From: Escherichia coli
Lineage (GTDB): Bacteria; Pseudomonadota; Gammaproteobacteria; Enterobacterales; Enterobacteriaceae
Reading direction: 5' to 3' (one strand)
NCBI RefSeq assembly: GCF_036507355.1
Contig: NZ_AP027877.1
DNA length: 64,000 nucleotides
Below are positions 4,337-11,190 of the stretch, piece by piece (positions within the stretch are counted from its first letter, which is position 1; every line of letters begins with the position of its first letter). The notes under the pieces are model-generated. The model was not told the origin of the DNA. It was given only the letters and a program-made list of their open reading frames with translations, and ran no database searches. A program made the translations under genes and the position numbers.

Positions 4337-5236
4337 TTAACGCAATAATGGACAATCTGGTGGTAATCGACAACGCAACGCCGCCGGAAGTATTTCAATA
4401 TGGAAGTTTTGCCCACTCAACGGTTCGCCATCAAGATTAAAAGTGATTTCGTGTGGGGCTTGTATATCAAACCACGACGAAGCGCCTTCGATAATATTCG
4501 GGTTATCTTCGTCAGATTTTAAGGTTGATACGAGAGCCGGAAGAATTTCATCGCCGGTAAAAATGCGCAGTTGCAGCAAGCCATCGTTAATTAACGCGTT
4601 CGGGCACAATTGTTGACCGCCACCGGCCTGACGCCCGTTACCAATACCAATGACCAGGGCGTCACCTTGCCAGTGAAAGTTTTCACCGCGGATTTCACAA
4701 CGGTCCGGTTGCAGAGTATCCATGCGCATTAAGCCATGAATGATGTAAGAGACGCCACCCAGCGCGGCTTTTAATTTTTCCGGCGTTTCTGTGGTAATAC
4801 GCGTCCCAAATCCGCCTGTCGCCATATTAATAAAACAGGTTTGTTTGTTGACCTGCGCCATATCTATCGCAATGGCGTTACCGGCAATTGCCAGTTTCAG
4901 CGCCTTATCCAGTGCCTCAGGAATCCCTACACTGGTGGCAAAATCATTGGCGGTTCCTAATGGCAAAATTCCCAGCGCGGGTATGTCATCCCCCTCACAC
5001 TGAATCAACGCCGTAGAAACTTCATTAATGGTGCCATCGCCACCACCGGCAATCACCGTTGCGACGCCCAACTTCCGGGCCTCCTCTACATATCGTGCGG
5101 CATCGCCTTTCTCCCAGGTGACCCGCACATGGATCGTCATTCCTTCCTCACGCAACAGCATAATTGCTTCGCGCAATGGTAAATTGTCAGTACTTTTGCC
5201 ATTAAGAATCAGTAAGCTGGCGGGAAATTCTGCCAT
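4337..5236 (-). CDS. yegS: lipid kinase YegS (DAGK-family)
   Basis: 299-aa [19 protein letters not shown]... with GGDGT motif typical of diacylglycerol-kinase fold. Confidence 0.9.
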
Positions 5237-5626
5237 GATCGTATGTGCCTTTATGATTGGTCTGTAGATAGTGTAGAGCAGAAAAGAAAAGGTGGAGTCA
5301 GAACAGGATGAAAGTCGGAGGATAAATAGTCAGTTCAAGTATGGAGGATTCAGTGGTTACCACCAGGAGCTTGCAATGGGGACAGCGAATACTAACGGCA
5401 GCCACCGATAAATTTCAAAAAAGAGCATATACCTAATATTCAACTAAACAGTGGCATCTTCAATATAATATATTAAAGCCTCCATGGAGTTACCCGGAAG
5501 GGCCTCCATGTCCGTAATTCCTACTTATGTAGGAAATGTTGTACAGAACATTTATTATAATCCTATTCAATTATAATAATCATGCCATTATTATATTTAA
5601 ACACTAGAGAGTGTCGTTGGTATTTA

Positions 5627-5959
5627 ATGGGGGAAGGTGAGGTGAACAAGATAGCTGCTATATCATTAATTAGTGTTTTTCTTATGTCTGGTTGTGCTGT
5701 GCATAATGATGAGACAAGTATCGGTAAATTTGGTCTTGCATATAAAAGTAATATTCAGCGTAAACTCGATAATCAATACTACACCGAAGCCGAAGCTTCT
5801 TTAGCCAGGGGCAGAATTTCTGGTGCAGAAAATATAGTAAAAAATGATGCAGCCCATTTCTGTGTTACTCAGGGCAAAAAAATGCAGATAGTTGACCTGA
5901 AGACAGAAGGTGCAGGATTACATGGCGTCGCTCGTCTGACATTCAAATGTGGAGAGTGA
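5627..5959 (+). CDS. yegR: YegR, small putative lipoprotein of unknown function
   Basis: ORF with signal peptide and lipobox (LMSGC); start chosen at internal ATG (MGEGEV), upstream ORF extension unsupported. Confidence 0.6.
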   Translation: MGEGEVNKIAAISLISVFLMSGCAVHNDETSIGKFGLAYKSNIQRKLDNQYYTEAEASLARGRISGAENIVKNDAAHFCVTQGKKMQIVDLKTEGAGLHGVARLTFKCGE

Positions 5960-6117
5960 GAATATTTTTTGGTAAGCGCCAAACATGCGCGTTCTGGTTG
6001 TGCTTAGCCGGAACCTGTGCGAGCACGATGCCGTTACGTGAAAGGCATCGTGCTATGAAGGGAGATTCTATCGATGTGGTCAATGGAAGACGGTGACCAG
6101 GGATAGGGCTTATGCAT

Positions 6118-6204
6118 AAAAAATAAGCCCGTGTAAGGGAGATTACACAGGCTAAGGAGGTGGTTCCTGGTACAGCTAGCATTTTATGGGTTATGTTTTT
6201 CAGC
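6118..6204 (-). ncRNA. cyaR: CyaR (RyeE) Hfq-dependent small RNA
   Basis: Reverse complement of 6118-6204 reads GCUGAAAAACAUAACCCAUAAAAUGCUAGC...CACGGGCUUAUUUUUU, matching the CyaR sequence as I recall it, with terminal hairpin and U-tail. Confidence 0.85.
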
Positions 6205-6288
6205 GAAACGGATGATAACCTTAATAAATGCAGCTGTATGTGATCGGTTTCTAAGAATTTTCCATCCGGGAAAAATAATCGAAATTAA

Positions 6289-7650
6289 TCACTTACCGTG
6301 TGGGTTACGCGTGGTTTCCCCGGAGAAATTACGCATCAGCAGCGCGTAATTTAGCTCAAGATCCTGCGGCACCGGGAGCCACACAGTATAACCATCGCCT
6401 GGTGCTACCGGCATAGCTTCGCCTTTGGCGTTTTCCATGTGCTCAAGGGTAAAGTTAATGTTGCCTTGCGGCGTCATCAGCTCAAGGCTGTCGCCAACGG
6501 AGAATTTATTTTTCACCGCTACCGCCGCGAGGTCCCCCTTGCGCTCACCGGTAAACTCACCAACAAACTGCTGGCGGTCAGAAACTGAATAACCGTATTC
6601 GTAGTTCTGATAATCGTCGTGAGTATGACGACGCAGAAATCCTTCGGTGTAACCACGATGCGCCAGACCTTCCAGAGTTTCCAGCAGGCTGGTATCGAAC
6701 GGTTTTCCCGCAGCGGCGTCATCGATAGCTTTGCGGTAAACCTGTGCGGTGCGTGCGCAATAGTAGAAAGATTTAGTACGGCCTTCGATTTTCAGCGAAT
6801 GCACGCCCATTTTGGTCAGGCGTTCTACATGGGCGATGGCGCGCAGATCTTTCGAGTTCATGATGTAAGTGCCGTGCTCATCTTCAAACGCGGTCATATA
6901 CTCGCCCGGACGCTGGGCTTCTTCGATCATAAACACTTTGTCGGTTGGCGCGCCAATACCAAGCGTAGGCTCAACGTTTTGCACCGGAATCGGCTCGTAC
7001 TTGTGTACGATGTTGCCGACGTCATCTTCTTTACCTTCCTGTACGTTGTACTCCCAGCGGCAGGCATTGGTGCAGGTTCCCTGGTTCGGGTCGCGTTTGT
7101 TAATGTAGCCCGAGAGCAGGCAGCGACCGGAGTAGGCCATGCACAGTGCGCCGTGAACGAAGATCTCGATCTCCATATCCGGCACCTGATTGCGGATCTC
7201 TTCAATCTCTTCCAGCGACAGCTCGCGAGAGAGGATCACGCGGGTCAGGCCCATTTGCTGCCAGAATTTCACCGTCGCCCAGTTTACGGCGTTAGCCTGC
7301 ACCGAGAGGTGGATCGGCATTTCAGGGAAGTGCTCACGCACCAGCATAATCAGCCCTGGATCGGACATAATCAGCGCATCCGGCCCCATTTCCACCACCG
7401 GTTTCAGGTCACGGATAAAGGTTTTCAGCTTGGCGTTGTGCGGGGCAATGTTGACCACGACATAAAACTTTTTCCCCAGCGCGTGGGCTTCATTGATGCC
7501 GAGCTGAAGATTTTCGTGGTTGAATTCGTTGTTGCGCACACGCAGGGAGTAACGCGGCTGGCCCGCATAAACAGCATCTGCGCCATAAGCGAAAGCGTAA
7601 CGCATATTTTTCAGCGTTCCCGCCGGGGAAAGGAGTTCCGGTTTAAACAT
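6289..7650 (-). CDS. yegQ: U32-family peptidase YegQ
   Basis: 453-aa ORF MFKPELLSPAGTLKNMRYAFAYGADAVYAGQPRYSLR... characteristic of peptidase U32 family. Confidence 0.9.
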   Translation of the reverse strand: MFKPELLSPAGTLKNMRYAFAYGADAVYAGQPRYSLRVRNNEFNHENLQLGINEAHALGKKFYVVVNIAPHNAKLKTFIRDLKPVVEMGPDALIMSDPGLIMLVREHFPEMPIHLSVQANAVNWATVKFWQQMGLTRVILSRELSLEEIEEIRNQVPDMEIEIFVHGALCMAYSGRCLLSGYINKRDPNQGTCTNACRWEYNVQEGKEDDVGNIVHKYEPIPVQNVEPTLGIGAPTDKVFMIEEAQRPGEYMTAFEDEHGTYIMNSKDLRAIAHVERLTKMGVHSLKIEGRTKSFYYCARTAQVYRKAIDDAAAGKPFDTSLLETLEGLAHRGYTEGFLRRHTHDDYQNYEYGYSVSDRQQFVGEFTGERKGDLAAVAVKNKFSVGDSLELMTPQGNINFTLEHMENAKGEAMPVAPGDGYTVWLPVPQDLELNYALLMRNFSGETTRNPHGK

Positions 7651-7752
7651 AATTCTCTCGTTCTGATGACAGGTCAGATCCGCTTCACCTGATGAAGCGG
7701 TTAGGGGAGTGCCCCCACTTTAAGGGCGGGCATTGTAGCGCAATCGGCGGGT

Positions 7753-8049
7753 TTAGCTCCAGTGTAAATGTCTGGTGGCGTCCTGGTTTTGGTTAAGGAT
7801 ACGAATGACGATAATTTCCCCTGGTGATTGCAGGAAATAAATTACGTGGCGTTCAAAAGGAAGAACAAAAATACCTTCGCCTAATTCAGGTCTGGGCGTA
7901 CCTATATTATTGTTACTCAGAATCTGGAGAACGTCTGAAAGATGTTCCACATATCTGTCGGCTTGTGGTTCGCCGAAATGGTGATAACTGTAATACCAGA
8001 TGCCTTCTAAATCCTCATTGGCTTTTGGCATGAGTTTAATAATACGCAC
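7753..8049 (-). CDS. ParE/RelE-superfamily toxin
   Basis: 98-aa ORF immediately downstream of, and 1 nt from, an RHH antitoxin ORF; ParE-like sequence pattern (..IFY...I.IIRIL...). Confidence 0.75.
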   Translation of the reverse strand: MRIIKLMPKANEDLEGIWYYSYHHFGEPQADRYVEHLSDVLQILSNNNIGTPRPELGEGIFVLPFERHVIYFLQSPGEIIVIRILNQNQDATRHLHWS

Positions 8050-8050
8050 A

Positions 8051-8302
8051 TTATTTCCTTATCCCTGCTTTCACCTTCCGTAAAAACGCGTCCTTTTCCC
8101 ACGGCTGAGCTTCACCACTACTCAACCCTTCTGCAAGCATGTCACGTAACGCTTGCAGGCGAGACTCTGCTTGCTTTTCTCGAAGTAAGCGCAGTGACTC
8201 ACGGATCACTTCGCTTTGGGTGCGATAGTCGCCGGATTCAATTAAGGACTCGATAAATTCACGCAACTCATCGCCGAGATCAACCGTCATCGTTCTGGCC
8301 AT
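8051..8302 (-). CDS. ParD-like (RHH/COG3609-type) antitoxin
   Basis: 83-aa ORF MARTMTVDLGDELREFIESLIESGDYRTQSEVIRESLRLLRE..., typical ParD antitoxin; precedes toxin ORF. Confidence 0.75.
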   Translation of the reverse strand: MARTMTVDLGDELREFIESLIESGDYRTQSEVIRESLRLLREKQAESRLQALRDMLAEGLSSGEAQPWEKDAFLRKVKAGIRK

Positions 8303-8315
8303 GTTTATGCTCTCC

Positions 8316-8334
8316 TGTAAGTAAAAATCTTACA
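8316..8334 (-). promoter_or_regulatory. Inverted repeat TGTAAG-n7-CTTACA in promoter region of the ParDE-like operon (candidate autoregulatory operator)
   Basis: Perfect 6-bp inverted repeat about 15 bp upstream of antitoxin start. Confidence 0.4.
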
Positions 8335-8499
8335 TCAGTGTATGTCATAAACCGGATAGCGTCACGAAAGTATTAGAAGATATTTTGGCAGATGAACATG
8401 TTCAGGAGGATAAGCATGGAGATGTTAAACAAAGAAAGCACAATGAGTATTCATCAGTGTCCACTATTTTAATGGCGCAGGTAAATAAATAAGCGTTAT

Positions 8500-8537
8500 T
8501 TGGAAATAAAGCCGGACGCCAACAACCCACGCCCGGC
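8500..8537 (-). terminator. Rho-independent terminator downstream of yegP
   Basis: GC-rich hairpin GCCGGGCG...CGTCCGGC followed by TTTATTTCC on minus strand just after yegP stop. Confidence 0.5.
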
Positions 8538-8544
8538 ATCGTAA

Positions 8545-8877
8545 TTACGTATTGTCTTTCACCGTCTGGCTTGTGCCATTGGCTTTAACGGAGGCAATTC
8601 CGGTTTCACGAGATTGCGCGGTGGCATACATCTGGCTGGAGCCGATAATTTGATGATTGGCGGCTTTCAGATTGAAATAGAATTTGCCGTTGCTTGCCGT
8701 TTTTTTCTCATAGCGTTCTTCTTGCGGGCTGTTGCTACGCACCGACGCGATGCCCTTTTCCGCAGAGGCTTTTGAGGTATACAGCTCGCTGGTGAGGATA
8801 GTCTCACCATTGCCCGCTTTTAGCACAAACCGGAACTGATTATCACTGCTCTTACTGAGTTCAAACCAACCAGCCAT
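8545..8877 (-). CDS. yegP: YegP (UPF0339/DUF1508 tandem-domain protein)
   Basis: ORF with internal tandem duplication (…KASAEKGIASVRSN… / …AQSRETGIASVKAN…); start at ATG MAGWFEL with upstream RBS. Confidence 0.85.
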   Translation of the reverse strand: MAGWFELSKSSDNQFRFVLKAGNGETILTSELYTSKASAEKGIASVRSNSPQEERYEKKTASNGKFYFNLKAANHQIIGSSQMYATAQSRETGIASVKANGTSQTVKDNT

Positions 8878-9067
8878 AATGACTCCTTGATTGAAATTGC
8901 TTATCGAAAACAGCATCTAAAGGTGCTGTTTACCGATTAAAGTATGAGCGATTTTCTGATGCCTGCCAGGGCGGAGAGATAATGTCAGTTTGCTGACCAT
9001 GCGTGGGATAATGTTGCCGGATCTGGTCTGAACGCCATCTCCGGCTAACAAAATAATGTCGCTAAAA

Positions 9068-9790
9068 CTAAACGATGCGGCAGGCGTCGGCTTCCCAGCG
9101 GTAACCGACGCCGTAAACGGCGCGGATAAATGACTGTTCGGCGTCGAGAGATTCCAGCTTGCGGCGCAGGTTTTTAATGTGGCTGTCGATGGTGCGGTCG
9201 GTTACTACGCGGTAGTCGTCATAAAGATGATTGAGCAATTGCTCGCGGGAGAACACTTTTCCTGGTTCGTGAGAGAGCGTTTTCAGCAGACGAAATTCCG
9301 CAGGCGTCAGGTCAAGCATTTTACCGCGCCATGAAGCCTGAAAACGACCTTCGTCGATAATCAACGGGCTTTCAGCATCCTGTTGCTGCAACTCGCGCTG
9401 CGGTTTGCAACGGCGCAAAATGGTTTTGACGCGCGCTACCACTTCCCGTGGGCTGTACGGCTTACAGATATAATCATCTGCGCCAATCTCCAGTCCGAGC
9501 AGGCGGTCGATCTCTTCGATTTTTGCCGTGACCATCACGATAGGAATGTCAGAAAAACGACGAATTTCCCGGCACAGCGTCAAGCCATCGGTGCCAGGGA
9601 GCATCAGATCCAACAGGATCAGATCCGGTGGTGTCTGGCGCACATACGGCAGTACCTGATCGCCGTGGCTGATAAGCGTCGGCGCATAGCTCGCAGCACG
9701 CAGATAATCAATGAGCAACTGCCCCAGCTTCGGTTCATCTTCCACGATCAAAATACGCGGTGTGTTTTCGTCGATTGGTAACTCGGTCAT
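9068..9790 (-). CDS. baeR: OmpR-family response regulator BaeR
   Basis: 240-aa ORF with receiver domain (LIVEDEPKL...D) and winged-helix C-terminus; overlaps baeS stop. Confidence 0.9.
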
Positions 9791-11190
9791 ACTTCTCTCT
9801 GTAAATCCCGTTCCAGCGGTAACTCTACTGTAATGCTTACCCCGCCAAAAGGCGAATGGGCGGCAATAATGCGGCCATTATGTGCTTCAACAATGTTCAG
9901 GCAAATCGCCAGCCCCAGCCCGGAACCGCCGCTGGCGCGGTTGCGGGAACCTTCGGTGCGATAAAAACGTTCAAACAATTTTTGTAGCTGATCGTCACTG
10001 ACACCTGGCGCACTGTCGGCAAAGGTCAGGCGCACCGTTTTGTCGTGCTGCTCGGCAGAGATTTTCAGGCTGCCGCCGCTGTCAGTGTAGCGCAGGCTGT
10101 TTTCCAGTAAGTTATTGAATAACTGCATTAAACGGTCGCGATCGCCAAATACGGTGATACTGTCTGGCAGGGAAAATTGCAGTTTCAGGCCACGGCTGGC
10201 AAATCGTTCGCGAAATGCGCCGCCCGCCACTTCCAGCAGTGGGATCAAATCTACCGGTGCTTTTTGATAGGCGAGAGCGCCTTCATCAGACATCGACAAC
10301 TGATGGAGATCGTCAACCAGTTTGGTCAGTGTACCGACCTCCGCCTGTAAAGACGCCACCGTCTCCGGCGTGAATTTACGCACGCCATCCTGAATGGCTT
10401 CCAGTTCACCGCGCAGCACTGCTAATGGCGTACGCAGTTCGTGAGAAATATCGGCCATAAAATCGCGCCGCATTTGCTGGTTTTTCTCCAGCGTGCTGGC
10501 GAGCTGGTTGAAGTCTTGCGCCAGTTTGCCCAGTTCATCTTCACTGGTGGGCGTTACGCGGGTAGTGAAATCGCCCGCCGCCAGTTTGTGCGTGCCATCG
10601 ACAAGTCGTTTTACCGGTGCCAGTAAACCGCGCGCTAGCAGAAAAGTGGCGAGTGCCGCGAGTAACGTTGCCAGGGCGACAATCAGCCAGCTGGTTTGCC
10701 GTTGTTGTTTATCGAAATTGATATCAGTATTGCGGGTCAGCCGCTCAACGGGGGAGGCAATCACCGCGCCCACTTCCGCACCGTTGACCAGAATGGGTCG
10801 CCGTGTACCGTCAGGTGGAATCGGCGCTCGCGGACCAACCAGCACCTTGTTGTTTTGATCAACCACCCAGAACTGAGTACGCCAGCCGTGTGGTGGCATA
10901 CCCGGGCCGGGTTTATCTTCCGAATTATCGTGTTCAAATGAACGCAGGATCTGAAAGACAAAGCGATCATTGTTGCGCAGGAAGCGCCAGTTGCCATGCT
11001 GCGCATACTGCTCGCCAAGCGCATCACTTAACAGTTGTAATCGCTGTTCATTACCATGCTTGATGTAATCAATAAAGCCACGCTCAAAACTGATACGCAC
11101 CGCCCAGTGCATACTGATCAGCAAGACAATGCAGGTGGCGAAAATCGCCAGAAACAGTTTGCCGGTAATACCAGGTCGCCAGAACTTCAT
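9787..11190 (-). CDS. baeS: sensor histidine kinase BaeS
   Basis: 467-aa ORF with TM segments, H-box ([11 protein letters not shown]) and HATPase motifs; upstream of baeR. Confidence 0.9.

Follow-up and report, generated by a model that had tools for sequence, protein, structure and literature searches.

The window analyzed here (the whole stretch of DNA, 64,000 nucleotides in length) comes from the E. coli chromosome and runs in the opposite orientation to K-12. The genes around the short open reading frame (ORF) under study all lie on the - strand and comprise yegQ/trhP (6289–7650), a toxin–antitoxin pair (7753–8302), yegP (8545–8877; DUF1508 by Pfam), baeR (9068–9790) and baeS (9787–11190). 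The ORF lies on the + strand between the toxin–antitoxin pair and yegP and is thus antisense to every neighbouring gene, and over at least 2.7 kb beyond it the + strand is still the antisense strand of yegP, baeR and baeS. The small RNA CyaR (RyeE; 6121–6206, -) was detected downstream of yegQ as a full-length Rfam match (100.7 bits), which is its known position in K-12.

The toxin–antitoxin pair is an ordinary parDE type II system. The toxin gene parE (7753–8049, -) encodes 98 amino acids from a GTG start, matches PF05016 (E = 2e-13) and is annotated by RefSeq as a RelE/ParE family toxin. The antitoxin gene parD (8051–8302, -) encodes 83 amino acids, matches PF03693 (E = 4e-19) and begins MARTMTVDLG, a start shared by plasmid and chromosomal homologues. 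The two genes are adjacent, 1 nt apart, with the antitoxin preceding the toxin. Alignment to K-12 BW25113 delimited a parDE cassette of ~770 bp (7742–8510), in place of which K-12 has 21 nt (TGTGGGGGGCTCTGGTAAAGC). The right-hand edge of this indel is the intrinsic terminator of yegP, a stem-loop read on the - strand (8511–8537; GCCGGGCG...CGTCCGGC followed by TTTATTT; -18 kcal/mol) with its T-tract at 8504–8510. We detected the cassette, one copy per genome, in 1846 of the 5426 complete E. coli genomes. The ORF lies inside it, near the yegP-side edge, and is absent from K-12. A repeated or mobile element was considered for the stretch and rejected, as the stretch is single-copy and its inverted repeats are of chance quality: the pair near the cassette ends (7773–7789 / 8508–8524) and the pair around the promoter (8289–8308 / 8392–8411) are of a kind expected 0.4–1.4 times by our own estimate.

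Insertions at the intergenic site between yegQ and yegP are polymorphic, and this hotspot has at least three states (window 7742–8510; loci L001, L082 2501–5132, L083). It is empty in the K-12 type (21 nt), is occupied by the parDE cassette in ~34% of E. coli genomes, and in strain IHE3034 carries a different island encoding proteins with PcfJ-domain, DUF1266 and DUF4034 assignments. The IHE3034 island retains the first 30 nt of the left end of the cassette, including the last parE codons, and therefore appears to have replaced a pre-existing parDE cassette.

Upstream of parD, the best match to promoter consensus on either strand of the region (8/12) was a predicted core promoter on the - strand (8337–8365) with a -35 element GTGACG (8365–8360), a 17-nt spacer and a -10 element TACACT (8342–8337). 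An operator-like palindrome, GTAAG-N7-CTTAC (8317–8333), is located between the -10 element and the parD ribosome-binding site. This layout, with a standard gene pair preceded by a -10 element and a palindromic operator, is that of type II parDE operons, in which the promoter is autoregulated and ParD acts as a ribbon–helix–helix repressor. We compared it with 69 loci of ParD relatives retrieved from species-representative genomes (100,044 searched through ParD). In 65 of the 69, a palindrome GTAAGA-N5-TCTTAC precedes the parD start by 14–25 nt and is itself preceded, at 3 nt, by a -10-like hexamer (TATAAT, TATACT or TACACT); the arrangement spans Enterobacterales, Alteromonadaceae and Legionella (loci L013–L081, position ~1950–2000). 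The Legionella loci have two palindromes, one on each side of the -10 element. The palindrome is presumably the ParD operator. A description of it upstream of parD was not found in the papers searched; the paper on the ParDE-I plasmid system predicts the promoter by software only and mentions neither a palindrome nor an inverted repeat (PMC6614396).

The stretch holding the ORF (8366–8510) lies between this core promoter/operator and the yegP terminator. Its promoter-proximal part begins with an AT-rich block (8366–8392, -) immediately upstream of the -35 element, which differs by 4–6% within Escherichia and could possibly serve as an UP-like element. It is followed by a perfect 12-bp palindrome, TGAACATGTTCA (8393–8404), ~90–100 nt upstream of the parD start and identical in all E. 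coli alleles and in Escherichia whittamii. Allowing up to one mismatch, 0.23 palindromes of this type are expected per window, which alone is not statistically remarkable, and the palindrome is not known to match any regulator consensus convincingly. The operator, the -10 and -35 elements, the AT-rich stretch and the 12-bp palindrome together form a block of ~115 bp upstream of parD that is kept within Escherichia.

At the outer edge of this block, abutting and overlapping the palindrome, is the Shine-Dalgarno (SD)-like motif that had drawn attention to the site. The preliminary description placed an 18-codon frame with a strong SD in 8400–8475, and the sequence is as it stated: TTCAGGAGGATAAGCATG contains AGGAGG (8404–8409, +), a 6-nt spacer (ATAAGC) and an ATG at 8416–8418 (ATG1), a spacing that makes for a near-optimal ribosome-binding site. 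The ORF (8416–8472, +) consists of 18 sense codons encoding MEMLNKESTMSIHQCPLF, with a second in-frame ATG at 8422 (ATG2) and a TAA stop at 8470–8472. In the ORF listing the same frame also opens from an earlier ATG at 8392 (8392–8472, 26 amino acids). The signal is of the quality that a translated small protein would have, but occurs at chance frequency: AGGAGG-N4-9-ATG has one match in the 64-kb window compared to 1.92 expected from shuffles, that is about two near-perfect SD and ATG pairs per 64 kb, and at least one match was obtained in 90 of 100 shuffles of the window. At the local composition (40% A, 27% T) the probability of at least 17 open codons after an ATG is ~19%. The SD and ATG pattern is no rarer than chance.

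The ORF is followed by a hypervariable AT-rich spacer (8473–8510) that differs by a 13-nt indel between alleles and includes the T-tract of the yegP terminator. The AT-rich hairpin AAATAA-GCG-TTATTT described earlier does exist, but at 8487–8501 and hence in this spacer, outside the interval 8400–8475 that was given for it. It has six A–T pairs and a predicted energy of -0.3 kcal/mol with no T-run after it, and a role as terminator was rejected on both counts.

Comparison of the cassette alleles showed that the frame opened by ATG1 is not maintained. In allele A, to which the window belongs, and in a mosaic allele (105 genomes together) the two ATGs are separated by ATGGAGATG and ATG1 opens the 18-codon ORF. 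In alleles B and C (1739 genomes) the corresponding sequence, ATGG-GATGGTAA, is 1 nt shorter; read as AAGTATGG-GATGGTAA, it makes ATG1 the start of a three-codon ORF (ATG-GGA-TGG-TAA). In E. whittamii, represented by one species-representative genome, the separation is ATGGGGAATG, 1 nt longer, and ATG1 opens the third frame for 28 amino acids. ATG1 thus feeds all three frames in three lineages, which is the behaviour of non-coding DNA. The SD-like motif and ATG1 themselves are kept in all four lineages including E. whittamii, with AGGAAG replacing AGGAGG in the ~190 genomes of allele C (~10% of the genomes with the cassette). The motif is probably retained because it abuts the conserved palindrome at the edge of the parDE upstream block.

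The frame opened by ATG2 (16 codons; MLNKESTMSIHQCPLF, MVNKESTTSARQCPLF, MSNKESTMSACLCLLF) runs uninterrupted to the same stop in every lineage, and its N-terminus, xNKEST, is conserved. As this frame stays open in 67–78% of simulations of random substitution at the observed density, its being open everywhere is uninformative. Codon changes within it were mostly non-synonymous, with synonymous to non-synonymous counts of 1:4 between alleles A and B, 2:5 between A and E. whittamii and 1:5 between B and E. whittamii. The synonymous share was no better than in the other two frames and close to the 14–16% expected without constraint, a comparison that rests on four lineages and has low statistical power.

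Divergence along the cassette places the ORF among its least constrained parts. Between alleles A and B it was 0.7% for parE, 1.2% for parD, 0.9% for yegP, 0% for the operator and core promoter and 4% for 8368–8415, compared to 12.5% plus a 1-nt indel for the ORF (8416–8472) and 13% plus the 13-nt indel for the spacer (8473–8510). Compared to E. whittamii, the ORF differed by 19% and parD and parE by ~4%. Within the cassette, divergence is thus fastest in the ORF body and the spacer that follows it (12–21% plus indels), and the ORF body diverges ~10 times faster than parD and parE, again across four lineages and with low power, rather than showing the slower change of a sequence under purifying selection. 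Conservation ends at the ATG, the opposite of the pattern expected of a coding body. In the mosaic allele (L004) the left half is of type A and the right half of type C, which shows recombination within the stretch. One E. coli assembly (BS-04, L006) was left out of the allele comparison due to a homopolymer-corrupted sequence at the locus.

The ORF stretch has a narrow distribution. E. whittamii was the only one of the 69 other-species ParD loci to share it, with 83% identity over 232 nt and the same locus order (baeR-yegP-parD-parE-yegQ). Homology to the cassettes of plasmids and of other species ends ~60 nt upstream of parD, and the ORF is not part of the parDE module that these conserve. 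The stretch was absent from the true plasmids and the phage records searched. Scanning metagenomes with the conserved upstream block yielded 15 contigs, in which the two common E. coli alleles were the only ones present. Taking plasmids, phages, the 100,044 species-representative genomes (through ParD) and metagenomes together, the search for an origin found the stretch in E. coli and E. whittamii only. Just two records filed as plasmids matched the full cassette with the ORF region (H91, CP061244.1, 1.41 Mb; H92, NZ_OL790696.1, 4.80 Mb); both are as large as chromosomes and probably represent misfiled chromosomal sequence.

Signals for expression of the + strand were also sought. No promoter upstream of the ORF passed the consensus scan, in which a weak or divergent promoter may escape notice; the best candidate under relaxed settings that places a start upstream of the SD-like motif was GCGTCA-16-TATTTT (7/12). 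The + strand RNA of 8380–8545 folded no better than shuffles (z-score 0.0), and an Rfam scan of 5000–10000 (E <= 1) gave CyaR as its sole match. A structured RNA was rejected on these grounds, with both strands folding like shuffles. None of the genomes inspected or listed carries a PGAP feature at the ORF. Annotation pipelines routinely miss very short proteins. A collection of 15 billion predicted proteins lacked the 26-, 35-, 36- and 45-aa ORFs of the stretch (the 18-aa peptide is shorter than the minimum query length), Pfam gave no match for the ORF, and the literature search returned no paper linking yegP or yegQ with the parDE cassette.

The 18-codon ORF is very probably not a gene but a frame left open by chance in non-coding spacer DNA that accompanies the cassette. 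It is broken or shifted in most relatives, its substitutions are neutral-like, it is absent outside Escherichia and it has never been annotated. The spacer that contains it (8366–8510) is flanked by the yegP terminator and the parDE promoter, with the surrounding transcription on the opposite strand, and the + strand here would not be productively transcribed or translated. Beyond the ATG the sequence drifts freely, by substitutions, 1-nt indels and the 13-nt indel, and the conserved part, if it has a function, would serve the parDE promoter. The three readings offered earlier for the ORF, an unannotated small protein, a leader peptide and a remnant of the insertion that delivered the cassette, fared differently. 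The last is compatible with the data, whether as a remnant or as a by-product of the insertion: the ORF lies inside the ~770-bp segment that K-12 lacks, in a stretch that is outside the parDE unit conserved in other species, plasmids and phages and that evolves like unconstrained DNA. A more specific form of it, in which the SD and ATG are the relic of a gene of the donor element that ran divergent from parDE and was truncated when the cassette settled by the yegP terminator, leaving 18 decaying codons, is unlikely. The position of the stretch at the yegP-side edge of the indel, the unusually good ribosome-binding site and a tail that decays fast with frameshifting indels, as in a pseudogene stub, are all consistent with it, but neither a homologue of the upstream stretch nor a conserved divergent gene occurs in any of the 68 non-Escherichia parDE loci or in the plasmid or phage records, and no parent gene was found anywhere. 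In addition, 18 codons are too few for a homology test, a Pfam match is absent and the SD and ATG pattern occurs at chance frequency. It is distinctly improbable that 8366–8418 (the AT-rich stretch, TGAACATGTTCA, AGGAGG and ATG1) is a real regulatory element of the Escherichia chromosomal parDE cassette, acting either as a site for a host regulator or as a divergent start whose mini-ORF (3–28 codons depending on lineage) matters by the act of translation.

The small protein itself would be a genuine, fast-evolving product of 16–18 amino acids, restricted to the Escherichia parDE cassette and started at ATG2 (or, in allele A, at ATG1). We consider it very unlikely. Retention of the strong SD-like motif and an ATG2, stop and N-terminal NKEST that are unchanged in alleles A, B and C, in the mosaic and in E. 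whittamii speak for it. However, in 94% of the genomes with the cassette the SD is 11 nt away from ATG2, and the better-spaced, out-of-frame ATG1 comes first. The changes in the ATG2 frame are neutral-like, its openness is uninformative, the scan found no + strand promoter, and the stretch is missing from all other parDE loci and is never annotated. The test proposed with the preliminary description, lack of conservation of the frame in relatives, came out against a small protein: ATG1 is in frame with the peptide in only 105 of the 1846 E. coli genomes with the cassette. A leader peptide or regulatory mini-ORF, for which translation rather than the peptide would matter, would explain why the SD and ATG1 are kept while the frame downstream varies and why conservation stops almost exactly at the ATG. 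It is nevertheless extremely unlikely: no gene follows in the same direction, with the + strand antisense to yegP, baeR and baeS; an alternative-hairpin or attenuator-like architecture is absent (fold z-score 0.0; hairpin -0.3 kcal/mol), as are a run of regulatory codons and, in the scan, a promoter; and a simpler reading of the conserved block is as the upstream portion of the parDE promoter on the - strand. Equally hard to credit is a role on the - strand, where the complement of the SD-like motif, CCUCCU, on a long transcript (for example, read-through from yegP) would pair with the parD ribosome-binding site and control translation of the antitoxin. Both the minimum free energy and the centroid folds of - strand 8545–8290 pair CCAUGCUUAUCCUCCUG with CAGGAGAGCAUAAACAUGG, and an imperfect inverted repeat (8289–8308 / 8392–8411) is present as well. 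That fold is no better in energy than shuffles (z-score 0.02), though, and by our own estimate chance alone would yield about one repeat of this quality in a region this size. The parD ribosome-binding site reads GGCGGG in alleles B and C and AAGAGA in E. whittamii with no compensating changes on the other side. The proposed anti-SD is also preceded by the strong yegP terminator (-18 kcal/mol) and followed by the core promoter. The pairing was rejected on its z-score, the absence of covariation and a site upstream of the core promoter.

Comparison with known classes of short ORF points the same way. Chance intergenic ORFs are likewise short, AT-rich, antisense to their neighbours, without a conserved frame, neutral-like in their changes, unannotated and marked by an SD and ATG pattern at chance frequency; what sets the present case apart from them is the unusually good SD-like motif (AGGAGG, 6-nt spacing) and its retention across Escherichia. 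For validated E. coli small proteins of <50 amino acids, ribosome profiling or epitope tagging has given evidence of expression, and their frames are usually conserved. The ORF resembles them in size and in a start preceded by a ribosome-binding site, whereas 94% of carriers have lost its ATG1 frame and the consensus scan gave no promoter. Attenuator leader peptides such as trpL, pheL, hisL and mgtL have 15–30 codons, a good SD and a hairpin after the ORF; here a target gene on the same strand, a U-tract, alternative structures and a regulatory codon run are all absent. Type I toxins of the Ibs family are strongly hydrophobic peptides of 18–19 amino acids. The ORF is like them in length and in its toxin–antitoxin neighbourhood, but its peptide is polar throughout (K, E, N, S, T, H, Q), with a GRAVY of -0.11 in allele A and -0.41 in allele B, and the Rfam scan of 5000–10000, with its single CyaR match, gave no antisense sRNA antitoxin at the ORF. 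Compared to type II parDE operons, the ORF is outside the conserved unit, 115–170 nt upstream on the opposite strand, in Escherichia-only DNA.

The result removes a false candidate from the list of small proteins, and its significance is small; were the ORF real, it would be a lineage-specific micro-protein tied to a toxin–antitoxin cassette. By-products for annotation are the delimited polymorphic parDE cassette, the promoter/operator layout and the recognition of apparent artefacts in ParD pseudogene calls. RefSeq/PGAP gives ParD in allele B as 98 amino acids with a 15-codon N-terminal extension (window 8303–8348; seen at L002 1012–1309, L003 1012–1308, L004 449–746 and L008 449–746). Due to this model, ParD of allele A is flagged as a ‘frameshifted’ pseudogene. 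The ATG of the 98-aa model is upstream of the predicted -10 element and operator, the ParD homologues all start MARTMTVDLG and the Pfam match begins at residue 1. The extension and the pseudogene calls look like annotation artefacts that stem from a start placed too far upstream, and the 83-aa ParD of the window is probably intact.

At the E. coli BS-04 locus (L006; NZ_CP172819.1 2132347–2134308), long homopolymer-like runs of T, G and A replace the cassette in an assembly labelled ‘complete’, and the toxin–antitoxin genes are unannotated. The runs look like a sequencing or assembly artefact and not biology.

Two further observations concern the history of the locus. The 95-bp stretch 8416–8510 differs by 12–13% plus indels between E. 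coli alleles with flanking genes at ~1%, an excess larger than ordinary neutral drift would suggest, and it may represent old alleles imported by recombination. Between E. coli and E. whittamii (L013; window 7640–8877), divergence was ~4% for parD and parE and 3% for the 5' end of yegQ, compared to 14% for yegP and 28% for the yegP terminator. It may be that the two species exchanged the cassette, or the yegQ side of the locus, more recently than yegP.
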